Under the pieces are notes generated by a model. That model saw only the letters and a list, made by a program, of their open reading frames with translations. It was not told the DNA's origin and made no database searches. From Nitrospirota bacterium (lineage in GTDB: Bacteria > Nitrospirota > Nitrospiria > JACQBW01), in NCBI GenBank assembly GCA_016178585.1, contig JACOTA010000013.1, forward strand, positions 3,183 to 67,182: 64,000 nt of DNA, in the 5' to 3' direction. The translations under genes were made by a program, and so were the position numbers. Below, in pieces: positions 6,586-61,311 of the stretch. The stretch's first letter is position 1. Each line of letters begins with the position of its first letter.

Positions 6586-9767
<3,182 letters not shown>

Positions 9768-26367: not shown

Positions 26368-27492
26368 TTAAATACTATCAATTTTTTGGCCGTAACGTTT
26401 TATCTGCCATTGGCGCAAAAGACCCGACTCGGATAGTCGTTCAGGACTATGGATATCCCGGGAGGTAATTGATCTCAAAACATCCGTCGAAATAATCATG
26501 GCCGGCTCCACACCCTCTTCGACCGCCTGCGCATCCCGCCATTTCTTTAACTCGGTAAATCGCTTTTCCTGGGCAGGGGTCGGAGGCGCTCCTCCTTTTT
26601 TAACTTTTAAAGGAAGGGGTTCATGGCTTTTTTCTCCGAGCGAAAGGGTTTTGAGCCAAAAAACGGGGTTTCGAAAAACGGAAGCGGTTTGTCTGGGAAA
26701 AAGAACCTTAAGCTCTTCAAGGGAATGCGGAGGTTGTTTGGCTAAAAGAAATAAATCCTCATTCGAAATAACCTTAAAGGGGGGACGGTCTAAATCTTTA
26801 GCCTGTTGTTCCCGTGCGATAACCAGTTCCCTTAAAATTTTTTGAGAACCCTCGGGTAAATTTTTTGCTCCCTTAATTTTAAAATATTTTTCAGACGAAA
26901 ATTCCTTCTCTTCCCAAACCCTCTCCTGTAACAGAAAACATTCCTCCTGGATTTGGTCTTGCCTCCCCTTTTTTTCCACTTCCGCAACAAGCCGTTCGTA
27001 TAACCCCGCAAGAAACGAAGTATCTTTATAGGCGTATTCGAGCTGGTCCGTTGAAATGGGGCGTTTTGACCAGTTGGCTTTCTGATGGGTTTTCACAAGT
27101 GCGATATTAAAATAAAGGGAGACCAGGTTTTGAAGAGAAAAGGCCTTAATTCCAACCGCACGGGCCGCCAGGACCGTGTCAAAAATCGTTAATATCGTGA
27201 AACCAAAGTCGCGTTTAAGCGAAATCAAATCATACTCGGCCCCATGAAAAATTTTGACGATCTTTTCGTTCTTGAACAACGACGAAAGCGGTTCTATCGT
27301 ATCGAGGAGAAGCGGATCAAAGATAAAATTTTCTTCTCCGCCGGAGATTTGAACAAGGCAAACTTTGTCCTGATAATGATAAAGAGAATCTCCTTCGATA
27401 TCGACCCCGATCACAGGGTGGGAAGAAAGACGCAAAATCGCTTCATCCCGCTCTTCGGGAAGCGTAATATAACGGTAAGGCAAGGCTGTCAT
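26368..27492 (-). CDS. rnd: Ribonuclease D (DEDDy 3'-5' exonuclease + HRDC)
   Basis: 374 aa with a 3'-5' exonuclease domain and a C-terminal HRDC-like region. Confidence 0.75.
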   Translation of the reverse strand: MTALPYRYITLPEERDEAILRLSSHPVIGVDIEGDSLYHYQDKVCLVQISGGEENFIFDPLLLDTIEPLSSLFKNEKIVKIFHGAEYDLISLKRDFGFTILTIFDTVLAARAVGIKAFSLQNLVSLYFNIALVKTHQKANWSKRPISTDQLEYAYKDTSFLAGLYERLVAEVEKKGRQDQIQEECFLLQERVWEEKEFSSEKYFKIKGAKNLPEGSQKILRELVIAREQQAKDLDRPPFKVISNEDLFLLAKQPPHSLEELKVLFPRQTASVFRNPVFWLKTLSLGEKSHEPLPLKVKKGGAPPTPAQEKRFTELKKWRDAQAVEEGVEPAMIISTDVLRSITSRDIHSPERLSESGLLRQWQIKRYGQKIDSI

Positions 27493-27564
27493 TTTTTCAT
27501 TTTATCACGAAATATCAATCACATGTGCAAAAAATAAGATTGTCTATTTTTTTAAAATGAGGGG

Positions 27565-27594
27565 TTTACCTCAACACTTTTTCCATGCTATTAT
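27565..27594 (+). promoter_or_regulatory. Putative sigma70 promoter (TTTACC-18-TATTAT) for the 27670 gene
   Basis: Hexamer match and spacing only. Confidence 0.3.
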
Positions 27595-27669
27595 CCTCTT
27601 AAGATTATTTTAAATCCGCCGATTAAATTTTAAAGGTTTAATTTTCATTTAATTCAGTAAGGAGAAAAA

Positions 27670-28269
27670 ATGCCGACACAAGCACAATACAAGGTTGTCC
27701 ATGGTCCGGAGGGGATTCTTCCTCCCGCCGCCGCGTACATGGGAGTTCTTCTCCCTGAAGAAGGAGAAGGATTGCTCGAAGGAGCGATTGTTAGCGAAGA
27801 TAAGGCAATGGAAGCCGCCGCTATCGCCATGTTAACCCGGAAAAATCCAACGCTTTTTCCCGGTCCGCTGGTTGTCTGGGGATGGACTTCTCATACCAAT
27901 GAAAAAGCAAAGGTGGTTTTAGAAATCGCTCATGAAATTCCAGGGGTCCGGATTATCCCGATGCCCGATTATCGCCCCATTTATCCAAAGATCGATCCTG
28001 AAGCGGTGATTAATCCCTGCCATCCGAACCTGACCATCTGGCATAATAAGATTCAAGCCTGTGTTTTCATCGGCGTTCATTGCCATTATGCCAATGTGAC
28101 CCTTAAGATCATTCGCGGCGGAACCAATTGTTACACCATCGCTCTCTGTGCGGAAGCAGGGCATGAAGACGCGATGTCCTCCGTCCCCAATTGCGATATA
28201 GACAAATTAGTTAAATTCCGTGATACCTTAAGGCGGGTTAAAAAGAATGGTGTAAAACCTTTTATATGA
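27670..28269 (+). CDS. Hypothetical protein, possibly CdhB (CODH/ACS epsilon)-like Rossmann fold
   Basis: 199 aa with a good RBS (AAGGAGAAAAAATG). Weak recollected resemblance to CdhB-type proteins (AIAMLTRKNPTLFPGPLVV, ACVFIGVHCHYANVTL). No partner cdh genes are present. Confidence 0.3.
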   Translation: MPTQAQYKVVHGPEGILPPAAAYMGVLLPEEGEGLLEGAIVSEDKAMEAAAIAMLTRKNPTLFPGPLVVWGWTSHTNEKAKVVLEIAHEIPGVRIIPMPDYRPIYPKIDPEAVINPCHPNLTIWHNKIQACVFIGVHCHYANVTLKIIRGGTNCYTIALCAEAGHEDAMSSVPNCDIDKLVKFRDTLRRVKKNGVKPFI

Positions 28270-28428
28270 AGGAAAAGGGATTATCCCCTCCTCTGCCTAT
28301 CAAAAAGCGCGATTGACGGGTGAAGATTATAACCCTGCAGTTGAAGACCATGCGCCTGGGTTCGCCCATGATCTTGAAAAAGGGTTGGACGAAAACGAAG
28401 AATAAATATAAATAAGAAGATAAAAAAA

Positions 28429-28457
28429 GGGGAGGCCAAAAGCCTCCCTTTTTTATT
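28429..28457 (+). terminator. Rho-independent terminator (GGGAGGC-CAAAA-GCCTCCC + T6)
   Basis: 7-bp GC stem followed by TTTTTTATT. Confidence 0.55.
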
Positions 28458-28806
28458 GTGCGCCCGGCAGGGCGCACAATTTAAAAACTTGAAATCACAG
28501 ATTGTGACTTCAAGTTGGGGTGGACTGCGCCGGGCCGCCCCCTACGCCTTCACTGAGCAAGGCGTGGCTATGCTTTCAAGTGTATTGCACAGCGAGCGCG
28601 CGATTCAGGTGAATATCGCCATCATGCGGACTTTTGTCCGCCTTAAAGAAATGATAACCACCCACAAAGACCTGGCCCGCAAGCTCGATGCGCTTGAGAA
28701 GAAATATGACCAACAGTTTGCGGTAGTTTTCGAGGCTATCCGGCAATTAATGACACCTTCAAAGAGCAAATTAACTCCTATCGGGTTTCGGACGAAGAAA
28801 AAATGA
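28456..28806 (+). pseudogene. ORF6N-domain protein, 5'-truncated remnant
   Basis: [53 protein letters not shown] matches the C-terminal half of ORF6N mobile-element proteins. The N-terminal half is absent, and the reading frame begins inside a palindrome. Confidence 0.55.
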
Positions 28807-28876
28807 AACTCTTTTTCTCGCTGAATGTCAGGGAAGGAAAATCGGTTTATTTCGGTTTAAATCCGAGAGAAAAAAC

Positions 28877-29146
28877 ATGAAAATCAATAAGCGCATTGTA
28901 TCCTTTTTGCTTTTTATCGCTATTCTTTGTTCGGTTCCGGCTTGGGCTGGACAGGGATGGTATCTGATGTACCCACCTTTAAAATCACAAGACCCTGATA
29001 GCTATTTATTTTATCAATTTGATTCTGAAGCCCCTCTAACAAAGTGGGAACATGTTGAGTCATTTGAGCGTGTTGAAGATTGTAAGCGTTATAAAGGTTC
29101 CGATATGGATATGGTAAACCATGAAATTGATTGCTTCATGGCATAG
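28877..29146 (+). CDS. Small secreted protein (signal peptide, two Cys)
   Basis: 89 aa. N-terminus KRIVSFLLFIAILCSVPAWA. Confidence 0.45.
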   Translation: MKINKRIVSFLLFIAILCSVPAWAGQGWYLMYPPLKSQDPDSYLFYQFDSEAPLTKWEHVESFERVEDCKRYKGSDMDMVNHEIDCFMA

Positions 29147-29592
29147 GAAACGCAGGGCAAGGATGGTATTTGATGGAGCCACCGATAGGGTCTGGCACAA
29201 CTCCGGAGGGAGGTACTATTTACTTCAGATTGAATAGTTGGATGACTTCCCCCTGGGTGTTCCCCGGAGTAAAACCCTCAATGCGGAGGGATGCTCAGAA
29301 TTTCTACAATCGGGTTTTCATTCCGGCTCTGGAGGGGGACGAAGCCAAGAAGGAGGCCAAAATTGAGGGAGTCGTGTGGCACTCACTCAGGCATACATTC
29401 GCTAGCCGGTTAGTCATGGCAGGGGTGGATTTAAGGACGGTCCAGGAGTTAATGGGACACAAGACGATAGAAATGACCCTGAGATATTCCCATTTAAGTC
29501 AAAGCCATCTAAACGAGGCAGTTTTAAGACTGGACCAAAAGAAGGTTCAGGAGCCGAAACCGGAGCAAACTCCAGTTCCAACCGCCACCTAA
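29131..29592 (+). pseudogene. Tyrosine recombinase (phage integrase) C-terminal fragment, chimeric
   Basis: The reading frame holds only the catalytic tail (HSLRHTFASRL...LMGHKTIEMTLRYSHL; R, H-x-x-R and Y present). N-terminal and core-binding domains are missing. The 5' portion repeats the AGQGWYLM segment of the upstream small gene. Confidence 0.65.
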
Positions 29593-29651
29593 ACCGCCAC
29601 CTGGTAAAAGAGGGAGATATTAAAAACACTCTAACCTATTGAAAAATAAAG

Positions 29652-29725
29652 TGCGCCTGGAGGGAATTGAACCCCCGACCTACAGATTCGGAATCTGCCA
29701 CTCTATCCAACTGAGCTACAGGCGC
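29652..29725 (-). tRNA. tRNA-Arg (anticodon CCG)
   Basis: Manual cloverleaf: 7-bp acceptor GCGCCTG/CAGGCGC, D arm, anticodon stem GCAGA/TCTGT with loop TTCCGAA, T loop TTCAATT, discriminator A. No encoded CCA. Confidence 0.85.
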
Positions 29726-29843
29726 ATTCAAGAAAAGTCATTTTAACAAAACTAATCCAGAAACTCTAATACCTTCAAAAACAATAAATCAAAACCTTAT
29801 CGACATTGCGGAACCATGTCGAGAGCAAGCTTGGTGACTCGCA

Positions 29844-29862
29844 CCAACTGAGCTACAGGCGC
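29844..29862 (-). other. tRNA-Arg 5' fragment (positions 1-19) within a diverged tandem copy of the tRNA upstream region
   Basis: CCAACTGAGCTACAGGCGC is identical to 29707-29725. About 78 bp of upstream flank is also duplicated at roughly 80% identity. Confidence 0.7.
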
Positions 29863-29958
29863 ATTATAGAAAAGTCTATTTTAACAGAACGAATCGAAAA
29901 ACTCTAATGCCCTTAAAAACAATAAATAAAAACCTTTTTAAAAAGTATTATAAAGGAT

Positions 29959-31167
29959 TTATTTGGGTTGGACAACCGCTTTGCTTCTCTGGCTTTTGAT
30001 TAAAAAGACGATGGCCATGATAAAGGCCAGACCCATAGTCAGCCCCGCGAAAATATAGGGGGTGTCGATTCCGTATCGGTCATAAACAAATCCGCCAGAC
30101 ATTGGACCCAATATTCGGGCCAGACTTCCCATCGCTTGCGAAACGCCCATTGTCGCTCCCACAAAATGAGGATCCGTATGTTGTGAAATCAAGCTCGTAA
30201 TTGAAGGATTGTTGATTCCCAGACCAAATGAAAGAACAACCAGTACAACAAGAAGATAATAAAGGTTGGGCGCGAAAGGGATCAAGATAAGCCCTAAAAT
30301 CATCATAAAAGTTCCGGCGACCACCAACCTTTTCTCGCCAAATTTTTTAACCAGATGACCGATTAGCCCCCCTTGCATAATCGCCATTAAAATTCCAATG
30401 AAGCCAAAAACATATCCCGTTTCGACCGAGCTGAAATGATATTTTTGTTCCGCGAAAAGGGCAAAAGTAGCTTCCAGGGTCGAAAAGGAAAAGGTGATGA
30501 TAAACATTAAGAAAACAAGAATGCCTAAAAGAGGAAATGAAAAAGTCTTTTTAATACTCTCGAGACTAAGACTCCTTTTCTCTCCAATCATTTCGGGTTT
30601 AAGGGTTTCCGGCAGGCTAAAAAGAGCAAAAAAGAAGTTGATGCCGCAAATAGCCGATGCTAAAAACGCCGGAATTCGGTAACCAAAGTGACTGAAATAC
30701 CCTCCAAACAGCGGTCCTAGAACAAATCCCAGACCAAATGCCGCTCCGATAAGACCCATCCCTTTCGCCCGGTTTGCCGCCGTCGTCGAATCGGAAATAT
30801 AAGCCTGGCTGGTCGATATATTGGCCGCAAAAATTCCCGCAAAAAACCTCGATATAAATAAAACCGCGAGAGAATCGGCAAGACCAAAAATAAGATAGGA
30901 AATGGAGGATCCAACCAGGCTCATTAGAATAATCGGTCTTCTCCCTTTCAGATCTGAAATGCGCCCCCAGATGGGCGAAAAAATTAACTGCATGAAAGAA
31001 TAGGAAGACATTAAAAGGCCTACCGTTAGCCCGGTCGCGCCATATTTTTCGGCATAAAAGGGTAATACGGGGATGACAATCCCGAATCCGAGGAGATCAA
31101 TAAAAACAGTAACGAAAATAATAACGAGTGGAGATTTTTTCAAGCGCCCGATTCCTTCCCTAACCAT
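29959..31167 (-). CDS. MFS transporter
   Basis: 402 aa with 12 predicted TM segments and an MFS loop motif (GRISDLKGRRP). Confidence 0.8.
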   Translation of the reverse strand: MVREGIGRLKKSPLVIIFVTVFIDLLGFGIVIPVLPFYAEKYGATGLTVGLLMSSYSFMQLIFSPIWGRISDLKGRRPIILMSLVGSSISYLIFGLADSLAVLFISRFFAGIFAANISTSQAYISDSTTAANRAKGMGLIGAAFGLGFVLGPLFGGYFSHFGYRIPAFLASAICGINFFFALFSLPETLKPEMIGEKRSLSLESIKKTFSFPLLGILVFLMFIITFSFSTLEATFALFAEQKYHFSSVETGYVFGFIGILMAIMQGGLIGHLVKKFGEKRLVVAGTFMMILGLILIPFAPNLYYLLVVLVVLSFGLGINNPSITSLISQHTDPHFVGATMGVSQAMGSLARILGPMSGGFVYDRYGIDTPYIFAGLTMGLAFIMAIVFLIKSQRSKAVVQPK

Positions 31168-31286
31168 TTTTTTATTGAGGTGAGCGATACATCCACAAAC
31201 GGTTAAATATAAGGTAATTCATGGGTAGAGTAAAGAAAATTGTGGAAACACCTTGATCTGATTTTGCGCCTGCCTTATGATGTAAG

Positions 31287-31396
31287 TGAAGCATCTGGCT
31301 CTGCCAGTGACGGACTTGGGAATGGTCGTAGTGAGACCGAGCGTAACGCGGGGTTCGGGGGCATTGAGAGTGAAGTGCTCGAAGGCCTCCTGAATA
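31287..31396 (+). repeat. F1 element, copy 4 (inverted on the chromosome; precedes the + strand radical SAM gene)
   Basis: Reverse complement of the consensus. Contains one 32-bp CGGTCT..GTC sub-module. Confidence 0.8.
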
Positions 31397-53623: not shown

Positions 53624-53794
53624 TATTCAGGGGCCTTCGCAAACGACACTCAATGCCCCCGAACCCCGCGTTCCACTCGGTCTAACTACGACCATTCCAA
53701 AGTCCGTCTCGGTCTAACTACGACCATTCCAAAGTCCGTCTCGGTCTAACGACGACCATTCCAAAGTCCGTCACTGGCAAAGCCAGTTGCTTCA
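53624..53794 (-). repeat. F1 element, copy 6b with three tandem 32-bp sub-modules (53678-53773)
   Basis: Second tandem unit. CGGTCTAACTACGACCATTCCAAAGTCCGTCT repeated three times. Confidence 0.8.
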
Positions 53795-54754
53795 CTGGAC
53801 TAAAAAGTCAAAACTTAGCTGTTCTTTTTTTAATAAGTTATGCGATATTCGATTAATCCCCTGCGCCGAAGTGGAATAGGGATATTCGAGCATCAGCGGA
53901 CGGCTCATTTTCGTTGCCCTCCATACCGAATCATCATATTCGACATAGCCTACATATTCTATCTGAATTCCAAAATATTTGGAACAGGAACTACGCATCG
54001 AAAAACCGAGCGCGATATCATCTTTTGACCGTACCTGGTTAACGATGATTTTAGGTTTGAAATTATAAATCTGTTCCTTTAATGTCCTTCCGACTTCAAA
54101 ATCGATTTTTTCCACCTGTTCGATTAAATCAAAAGGAGTTCGAATTCCCAGGTCATTTTTCTGGTCCATCGCCTGCGTAATAACGGCTTTAATCGCGGGA
54201 TCTTTGACAACTTTTTTAAACCGCCTGTAAAAAGAACTTTTGATAAACCGATAAACGTTTTCGATGGACGTCGGCTCCGGGAGGACCGTCAAAATTCCGA
54301 CATCCGAAATCAGAAAAAAATCCAAAATATTAAAAGAAGTTCCCGCCCCCAAATCAAGAATGATGTACTCAAAATCGAGTTCCTGAATCTGCCGGATAAG
54401 CTTCATTTTTTCGCGATATTTTGGATTCGCGATTTCCAAAAAATCCTGGGCCCCGCTGATTAGCGATAAATTGGGTATTTGCGTTTCGAGCAAAACTTCA
54501 TGGATGGACTTTACTTTTCCCCGTATAAAATCCGAAAGGGTGGCCCCTTTCACGGAAATTCCCAAACAGGTATGAAGATTGGCGCAGCCTAAATCCGCGT
54601 CAATTAAAATGACTTTTTTCCCTAATCGGGTGAGAGAAATCGCAAGGTTTCCGGATAAGAAGGTCTTTCCGGTTCCTCCCTTTCCTCCGCCAACGGCCCA
54701 GATTTCCCGGTTTTGCGCTTTTAATTTACCTTTAAGGATATCGACTGAAGACAT
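53792..54754 (-). CDS. MinD/ParA-family P-loop ATPase
   Basis: Deviant Walker A GGGKGGTGKT. 320 aa. Confidence 0.7.
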   Translation of the reverse strand: MSSVDILKGKLKAQNREIWAVGGGKGGTGKTFLSGNLAISLTRLGKKVILIDADLGCANLHTCLGISVKGATLSDFIRGKVKSIHEVLLETQIPNLSLISGAQDFLEIANPKYREKMKLIRQIQELDFEYIILDLGAGTSFNILDFFLISDVGILTVLPEPTSIENVYRFIKSSFYRRFKKVVKDPAIKAVITQAMDQKNDLGIRTPFDLIEQVEKIDFEVGRTLKEQIYNFKPKIIVNQVRSKDDIALGFSMRSSCSKYFGIQIEYVGYVEYDDSVWRATKMSRPLMLEYPYSTSAQGINRISHNLLKKEQLSFDFLVQ

Positions 54755-61167: not shown

Positions 61168-61200
61168 GAGACGGATTGTGGAATGGTCGTAGTTAGACCG
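61168..61200 (-). repeat. Solo 32-bp sub-module (CGGTCTAACTACGACCATTCCACAATCCGTCT)
   Basis: Occurs outside any F1 element, downstream of pgpA. Confidence 0.6.
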
Positions 61201-61311
61201 AAAAAGTGGTTTTTTTGTCATTCCCGTGCAAACGGGAATCCAGTTTTTTCAAGTCGTTATGTTCTCCCTAGATTCCCGCTTTCGCGGGAATGACGAATTT
61301 TTACAAGACCA

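Follow-up and report, generated by a model that had tools for sequence, protein, structure and literature searches.

The 1,193 nucleotides (nt) at positions 28458-29650 of the DNA analysed here, a 64,000-nt stretch from a metagenome-assembled genome of class Nitrospiria, phylum Nitrospirota (contig JACOTA010000013.1 of assembly GCA_016178585.1; henceforth referred to as the window), are in all likelihood the stump of an element that was integrated site-specifically at the 3' end of the tRNA-Arg(CCG) gene, and a repeat on the upstream side of the same tRNA gene is a separate and older feature. A first-pass annotation of the locus, made from the sequence letters, had recognised a decayed integrative element at the 3' side of the tRNA, and we find there an integrase tail, truncated cargo and an insert that is absent from relatives. 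The same annotation had counted a duplication at the 5' side of the tRNA into the scar; as part of the same or of a recent event this does not hold, since the duplicated 5' end is shared with relatives that carry no island and is followed by strongly conserved sequence. Throughout, tRNA genes in the window were called with ARAGORN and Rfam and protein families with Pfam, PHROG and NCBIfam, and the locus was compared with tRNA-Arg(CCG)/RNase D/cdhB loci from seven other lineages (coordinates of the features are given in Table 1).

The open reading frame (ORF) next to the tRNA, at 29131-29592, matches the tyrosine-recombinase family PF00589 at model positions 116-171 of 172 only (58.8 bits, E 7.5e-16, against a gathering score of 27.1), which bears out the homology proposed for this frame and confines it to 29230-29568. 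The tail has 2,762 homologues, with PF00589 matches in the thousands, the best other than itself being P0002 with 70% identity, and it aligns with chain residues 100-160 of the HP1 integrase (PDB 1AIH), which hold HxxR, the second His and the Tyr nucleophile. It had been described as a catalytic tail with R, HxxR and Y motifs: the HxxR motif (HSLR), the histidine of GH and the tyrosine of RY are indeed kept, but the first catalytic Arg (Arg-I) and the Lys-beta hairpin are gone, as judged by eye from longer homologues. Homology with the latter begins at 'LNSWMTSPWVFP', about residue 34 (nt 29218-29230), downstream of the Arg-I box and of the Lys-beta hairpin that P0002 and P0005 possess. The tail holds neither the full catalytic set R-K-H-R-H/W-Y nor the whole catalytic domain, no SAM-like core-binding domain was found in the window, and tblastn of P0006, P0027, P0089 and P0093 against all frames of the 64 kb detected nothing of the N-terminal integrase part. 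On these grounds we judge the truncated tail to be incapable of recombinase activity. None of the first 33 codons of the ORF comes from an integrase, a point overlooked in the first-pass annotation: within them, 29152-29183 is an 81% copy of 28946-28977, which belongs to a small secreted-protein gene further left in the stump, and encodes AGQGWYLMEPP as compared to AGQGWYLMYPP. Because these codons copy the small-protein gene, the ORF is a deletion-generated chimera, in which a fragment of a second copy or module of that gene is fused in frame to the integrase tail.

The tail lies beside the intact tRNA in the orientation usual for its family: the integrase gene (int) and the tRNA converge, leaving 58 nt between the int stop codon and the 3' end of the tRNA. 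Many members of the family (P0005, P0006, P0019, P0024, P0093 and P0102) terminate in peptides translated from tRNA sequence (GFEPPT, GIEPSTYRL, DSNLRP and others); the ORFs of such int genes cross attL and overlap the 3' end of the tRNA, on which they converge as the tail does in the window. The same reading into the tRNA was noted by Islander for the Mx8 and SSV integrases (PMC4383910).

At the other end of the stump, the ORF at 28456-28806 covers only the later part of the ORF6N domain (PF10543 model positions 49-86 of 86), so that the full domain is not present, and matches PHROG 4792 (anti-repressor) over profile positions 66-130 of 268. Intact ORF6N homologues of 183 and 189 aa extend about 55-70 residues further N-terminally, in agreement with the earlier description of a gene without its N-terminal part, and over the C-terminal part the identity to annotated ORF6N proteins from plasmids of Bacteroides, Sulfuricurvum and Legionella is 40-58%. 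Less than 10 nt separate the truncation point from an inverted repeat downstream of it, within the ORF6N coding sequence. Between the ORF6N and integrase fragments lies the small secreted-protein gene, present as first annotated. It belongs to an uncharacterised family with 87 members in the representative library (P0242-P0255 among them), typically of 100-135 aa, which follow the pattern signal peptide, AGQGWYLMxPP ... SKW..FD.A.EC ... CIASDDPRLK and in some cases contain two tandem modules; the protein in the window ends inside the conserved C-terminal motif, and no Pfam, PHROG or NCBIfam model matches it. Across the family, the mature N-terminus, (A)GQGWYL(M/L)xPP, is invariant. The GC content of the ORF6N and int fragments is 0.50-0.51, slightly above that of their surroundings.

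The left edge of the stump is set by the relative L105, in which the same terminator hairpin and TTTTTTATT follow the cdhB-like gene and homology to the window stops after TTTTTTATT, at 28457. Since ORF6N homology begins at about 28477, the junction lies between these two positions, which upholds the left edge and the stump length of about 1.2 kb suggested earlier. We had suspected the cdhB-like gene of being island cargo, since it is missing from L009, and rejected this because the gene adjoins RNase D in both L092 and L105; it is therefore chromosomal, as the first-pass annotation had implied. The junction carries a GC-rich palindrome, which starts one base to the left of where it was first placed (28456-28479, not 28457-28480). 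Within it, 28458-28472 (GTGCGCCCGGCAGGG) resembles GTGCGCCTGG-AGGG on the same strand and in direct-repeat orientation (13 identical positions, one mismatch and one gap); the match of 14 of 15 positions noted earlier does exist, but its partner is the tRNA 3' end itself and not the flank. This 15-mer begins at the first base past the chromosomal homology, has the orientation expected of a displaced 3' fragment of the tRNA gene (tDNA), and its length fits a crossover at the T-stem/acceptor junction, a crossover subsite listed by Islander (PMC4383910). Blind local alignment of the tRNA region with 27400-29600 gave the palindrome match a score of 18, below the mean best shuffled score of 19.9, and taken in this way the match is therefore uninformative. 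With the search restricted to the independently defined junction, and only then, the 20-mer at that fixed position had a P value of 0.0006 (window composition), 0.0017 (shuffled junction) or 0.005 (shuffled palindromes). A search for the repeat elsewhere, with the 22-nt tRNA 3' end across the whole window, returned no longer repeat and none above chance. The attL-type repeat proposed earlier thus stands out at the exact junction and not in a blind search, and we lean, by a little, towards reading the junctional 15-mer as a probable remnant of the attR core.

The insert is absent from the relatives, whose gene orders are given here in the orientation of the tRNA, with the identity of a marker to its counterpart in the window. 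L105 and L106 (MFS 63%) have radical-SAM, TPR and major facilitator superfamily (MFS) genes, tRNA-Arg(CCG), beta-CASP, MscS, the cdhB-like gene (244 aa, opposite strand) and RNase D; L103 (MFS 67%) has MFS, the tRNA and carboxypeptidase-regulatory-like genes; L101 (MFS 78%) has MFS, the tRNA and small hypothetical ORFs; L102 (MFS 75%) has MFS, the tRNA and FecR; in L009 and L099 (MFS 76% and 73%, respectively) MFS and the tRNA are followed by RNase D about 50 nt further; and L092 (RNase D 83%, cdhB 96%) has a chemotaxis-receptor-like gene, the cdhB-like gene and RNase D, and no tRNA. Sequences of int, ORF6N and the small-protein gene are missing at the locus from all of them, the tRNA being present without these in L009, L099, L101, L102, L103 and L105, and the comparison with related tRNA-Arg loci that had been proposed as a check found the arrangement of the window as an intact locus in none. 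The exact empty junction of tRNA and cdhB was likewise seen in none of the relatives compared. The single tRNA that both ARAGORN and Rfam found at the locus is identical in sequence in L009. On the 5' side of the tRNA the radical-SAM/MFS/tRNA order is constant where it was recovered (the window, L009, L101 and L102, and L105 with the TPR gene inserted), and the gene past the tRNA 3' end is different in every lineage examined; tblastn of beta-CASP, MscS, the chemotaxis receptor (MCP), FecR and the L101 ORFs against the window gave no match. The 3' side of tRNA-Arg(CCG) is thus a general synteny breakpoint, or rearrangement hotspot, in this Nitrospirota clade. A metagenome scan with the MFS alignment yielded 80 loci, none of which exceeded 52% identity or had tRNA-Arg adjacent.

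From these observations we infer the following history. A prophage or genomic island with int, an ORF6N regulator and one or two small secreted-protein genes would have entered the tRNA 3' end by means of its tyrosine integrase, an event that would have regenerated the tRNA, left int beside it and transcribed towards it, and placed the displaced 3' fragment at the far end, by the cdhB-like terminator. At least two or three later internal deletions would then have removed nearly everything, one of them running from the attR core to the middle of the anti-repressor-like ORF6N gene and another from the second copy of the small-protein gene to about codon 250 of int; a further deletion may have occurred at the end of the first small-protein copy. 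The intact tRNA presumably blocks deletion of the adjacent int tail, which would account for the persistence of the latter. What is left is predicted to be able neither to integrate nor to excise.

Several points weigh against this history. The far-end repeat is short, lies inside a palindrome and is equalled by chance in a blind search. L105 has beta-CASP and MscS between the tRNA and cdhB, and had these genes already been there when the element integrated, the attR proper would lie elsewhere, which would make the 15-mer a chance match. The small secreted-protein genes could be chromosomal instead of cargo, as their family resembles ordinary small secreted proteins. Finally, we found no intact copy of the element.

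The 5' side of the tRNA tells of an older event. Here, 29837-29936 and 29700-29798 are identical at 86 of 99 positions with one gap, better than the identity of about 80% first given, but the copies are not strictly in tandem, as 38 unrelated nt lie between them. Neither the 38-nt core nor the palindrome of the left junction has another copy in the window, and they are therefore not dispersed repeats. We refer to the present upstream region of the tRNA as U1, to its upstream copy as U2, to the copy of the tRNA 5' end as A2 and to the non-coding segment past A2 as X. A simple tandem duplication was considered as the origin and rejected, since the 38 nt have no counterpart past the second copy and the relatives share the tRNA fragment but not the second upstream copy. 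The U1/U2 repeat (87%) is specific to the lineage of the window, in which the upstream region flanking the fragment would have been duplicated or converted anew, L009 and L101 having in common a different, shorter U1. Both L009 and L099, which are free of the island, carry the same 19-nt copy of the tRNA 5' end (tRNA nt 1-19) followed by the same sequence. Segment X is identical between the window and L009 at 55 of 59 positions, as compared to 40% at the four-fold degenerate sites of three flanking genes (389 sites; P ~1e-17), and between the window and L101 at 45 of 56 positions (P ~2e-8). In L101 the 5' end of the fragment, GCCCGCATGTAGCCAAGTCGG, is merely tRNA-like, and TGTGGGT, right past the T-arm-like hairpin (GACAT-GGTTTAGCA-ATGTC), can by eye pair with all 7 nt of that 5' end in the manner of an acceptor stem; L102 has a degenerate form, in which the flanking motifs are kept around an insert of about 95 nt. 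Because relatives without the island (L009, L099, L101 and, in degenerate form, L102) share it, the upstream element predates the stump, and because it is far more conserved than neutral sites it is under constraint.

The outgroups L103 and L105 are without the upstream element, and in them the tRNA begins within 10-26 nt of a TTGTCG-17-TATAAT promoter located where the MFS gene ends. In L101 the homologous promoter is followed by the tRNA-like fragment within 8 nt, and L102 likewise has the promoter upstream of the fragment. Since the fragment sits where the tRNA follows the promoter in the outgroups, it would represent the original tRNA 5' end, and in the common ancestor of the window, L009, L101 and L102 the working tRNA appears to have become separated from it by about 90 nt together with a new 5' end. 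For the origin of the element we favour a decayed tandem copy of the tRNA, on account of both the T-arm-like hairpin and, in L101, the acceptor-like pairing; an old island of the rare 5'-fragment type, deleted down to its ends, also fits. Rfam at a permissive threshold (E<=10) returned no family and no match to the tRNA model on the upstream element, and ARAGORN recognised no tRNA cloverleaf in the fragment and X (one tRNA per locus). RNAalifold on four sequences gave no compensatory pairs and supported no particular structure, and the single-sequence fold had a z-score of -1.05. With four lineages, no compensatory changes and no Rfam or tRNA-model match, both the tRNA origin and an RNA function are best regarded as candidates. 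That the fragment and the 59-nt segment form a functional tRNA-derived non-coding element, such as a processed leader or a small RNA made from the ancestral tRNA promoter, is a tentative proposal to which we give rather less than even weight. If it were true, the element arose in one Nitrospiria clade, is under strong purifying selection and could control maturation or expression of the tRNA. Conserved at ~93% where neutral sites are saturated, the upstream element is a candidate new cis-acting or small RNA element, and possibly a weightier result than the stump itself.

These comparisons also bear on whether the 5' tRNA fragment and the 3' stump could be the two ends of a single integration history, with the duplicate as a recent scar. 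Islands of that kind exist, since 159 of the 3,919 in Islander displace a 5' tDNA fragment upstream (PMC4383910), and the L101 fragment does occupy the position of the tRNA in the outgroups, right past the ancestral promoter. Yet the fragment and the 59 nt occur in relatives that lack the int, ORF6N and small-protein genes, and are thus older than the stump; their conservation far exceeds the neutral level; merely 60-110 nt separate the fragment from the tRNA; and the similarity to the tRNA ends at about position 25, in the D arm, which is not a crossover subsite listed by Islander (PMC4383910). As a recent event the single history is largely refuted, and we consider it unlikely overall.

A different reading of the integrase tail, namely that its ORF or the 103-aa product called by the gene finder is a retained functional small protein, for example a regulator derived from an integrase C-terminus, draws on the open frame of 153 codons and on several homologues of about 145-160 aa that are called on long contigs (P0019, P0024 and P0028). 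However, the 33 N-terminal residues come from an unrelated secreted-protein gene, two catalytic residues and the whole DNA-binding N-terminal part are gone, no relative has the ORF at this locus, and the short homologues, most of which read into a tRNA or have in-frame integrase sequence upstream (as in L003), look mis-called or decayed; this reading is very improbable. L003 also holds the closest homologue, P0002, and has weak SAM-like matches upstream of its tail that fall below the Pfam cut-off. P0002 forms the 3' portion of a gene of some 363 codons (L003 7356-8453; also in L004-L006) that a single in-frame stop at 7992-7994 interrupts, and this stop is present in four independent assemblies; the split gene could be a pseudogene or a case of recoding.

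Segments 26404-29736 and 29836-31331 are reproduced at 100% identity in independent Logan assemblies from other samples or sequencing runs, so the internal junctions did not arise as an artefact of a single assembly. An illegitimate recombination or assembly chimera without site-specific integration at the tRNA is barely credible: it could appeal to the want of both an unambiguous long direct repeat and an intact integrase, and to Logan contigs of independent samples that stop at 29736 and 29836, but independent assemblies agree at 100% across all internal junctions and the adjacency of int and tRNA, int is oriented towards the tRNA 3' end and spaced from it as is typical of its family, a repeat resembling the tRNA end lies at the exact junction, and L009 and L099 match the arrangement across 29737-29835. 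The contig ends themselves recur: in different sequencing runs, two pairs of Logan contigs that match the window at 100% stop exactly at 29736 and 29836 and leave outside the 99 nt between them (U1 and most of X), perhaps because the population holds a second haplotype of this segment.

Integration sites in tDNA were reportedly classified by Williams in 2002. Site-specific integration followed by decay makes the stump another case of the well-known class of tDNA-integrated islands, of the type collected in Islander, and as ordinary genome decay it will not surprise a specialist. It shares with that class the adjacency of a tyrosine int to an intact tRNA 3' end and its transcription towards it, a putative short direct repeat of that end at the far edge (of the T-stem/acceptor junction type), an insert that is absent in relatives and a tRNA 3' side that is a hotspot. 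Unlike intact islands, only 1.2 kb are left, two thirds of the integrase are missing and the repeat is degenerate within a palindrome; the stump would not pass the Islander filters, which ask for both an integrase gene and 2 kb or more of length (PMC4383910). In the same way, the tail resembles PF00589 proteins and the HP1 integrase in its C-terminal segment with His-x-x-Arg, second His and nucleophilic Tyr, but differs from them in having no Arg-I, Lys-beta, remainder of the catalytic domain or SAM-like core-binding domain, and the ORF6N fragment resembles the KilA-N-related, anti-repressor-like proteins of phages, plasmids and integrative and conjugative elements (PF10543) in its C-terminal identity and internal coding palindrome, but is without the first half of the domain. 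The upstream element is like tandem tRNA copies or pseudogenes in having an exact 19-nt tRNA 5' end, in the same orientation and beside the ancestral promoter, followed by a T-arm-like hairpin; unlike them it has no anticodon arm, is not recognised by ARAGORN or the Rfam tRNA model and is conserved like a functional element, and unlike 5'-fragment tDNA islands it has no island between the fragment and the tRNA. The stump in itself matters little, beyond illustrating that a piece of int beside the tRNA and an att-like repeat survive the decay of an island. Its main use is for annotation: the int tail and the ORF6N fragment should be labelled as pseudogenes, and so, probably, should the frameshifted cdhB-like gene (described below).

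Table 1. Features of the tRNA-Arg(CCG) locus, in window coordinates.
Feature	Position	Strand	Basis
Intrinsic terminator of the chromosomal cdhB-like gene (GGGAGGCC-loop-GCCTCCC and T-run), left flank of the stump	28430-28457	+	terminator-like match; L105 homology
GC-rich palindrome TTGTGCGCCCGGCAGGGCGCACAA (GTGCGCCCGGCAGGGCGCAC) at the junction, candidate degenerate attR core	28456-28479		inverted-repeat search
ORF6N-domain gene (pseudogene fragment), without ~55-70 N-terminal codons, C-terminal ~60% left	28477-28806	+	PF10543, PHROG 4792, homologue alignment
Inverted repeat, 14 nt per arm, inside the ORF6N coding sequence	28486-28516		repeat search, comparison with other ORF6N genes
Small secreted-protein gene, 89 aa, signal-peptide-like N-terminus (by eye)	28877-29146	+	family comparison
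Second copy or module fragment of the small-protein gene (AGQGWYLMEPPIGSG), fused in frame to the integrase tail	29152-29196	+	81% DNA repeat; tblastn
Tyrosine integrase, C-terminal third, ending at its own stop codon	29230-29592	+	Pfam, homologue alignments, tblastn
Spacer of 58 nt from the integrase stop to the tRNA 3' end, attL side of the putative former element	29593-29650		sequence
tRNA-Arg(CCG), intact, putative integration target	29651-29725	-	ARAGORN; Rfam RF00005 (29652-29725, 70 bits)
U1, present tRNA upstream region, extended -10-like TGtTAAAAT	29726-29798	-	87% copy of U2
X, conserved 59-nt non-coding segment past the tRNA 5' copy, T-arm-like hairpin with GGTTC	29785-29843	-	L009/L101 alignment
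A2, exact copy of tRNA nt 1-19, with weaker similarity to ~nt 26 (29837)	29844-29862	-	repeat search
U2, upstream copy of the tRNA upstream region; TGtTAAAAT box kept in L009 and L099	29863-29936	-	repeat search
Ancestral tRNA promoter-like site TTGTCC-17-TATAAT, overlapping the MFS gene end	29947-29975	-	promoter scan
Sequence pattern of the locus: GAGTCACNAAGCNTGCT...GACATGNTT...GCAATGTC

The inverted repeat within the ORF6N fragment recurs in ORF6N genes of unrelated phyla, in which the codons for the motif NL(K/R)SQxVTS(S/R) form an inverted repeat with arms of 12-14 nt and a loop of 3-5 nt. It was found in the window, in a Bacteroides plasmid (where it is perfect), in a Sulfuricurvum plasmid and in six further distinct viral-contig sequences, and is located at ~604-630 in L108, at ~603-629 in L109 and near 1510-1545 in L110, L111, L112, L128 and L135. 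The divergent motif SNWSQLVTSY is encoded by different bases and nevertheless forms a perfect 12-nt palindrome. Against a null of uniform codon usage, 11-13 of 14 positions are paired where about 7 would be expected under random synonymous codons (P<0.01 in 9/9 sequences, which are not independent of one another), and the pairing is maintained by synonymous and compensatory changes. These results suggest a DNA or RNA hairpin under selection inside ORF6N genes; a conservation at the nucleotide level, across unrelated phyla, that goes beyond the needs of the protein motif would possibly also be a weightier by-product of this analysis.

Three smaller observations concern the flanks of the locus. 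The cdhB-like gene (PF02552; 27670-28405, + strand) is 244 aa long in both L092 and L105 but encodes 199 aa in the window, where one additional T in the T-run near 28258-28262 shifts the frame (around 28255-28269), and the last 45 codons, up to the TAA at 28403-28405, are readable in another frame, which could be either a recent pseudogenisation or a homopolymer error common to all assemblies. A 45-nt stretch upstream of the MFS gene (31285-31329) recurs inverted, at 93% identity, at 53752-53796, 22 kb away. Finally, L009 (2990-3150) and L099 (~480-640) contain, between the MFS gene and the tRNA upstream region, an insert of about 150 nt with terminal inverted repeats that resembles a miniature inverted-repeat transposable element, and a stretch 72% identical to it lies in the window at 61200-61294.

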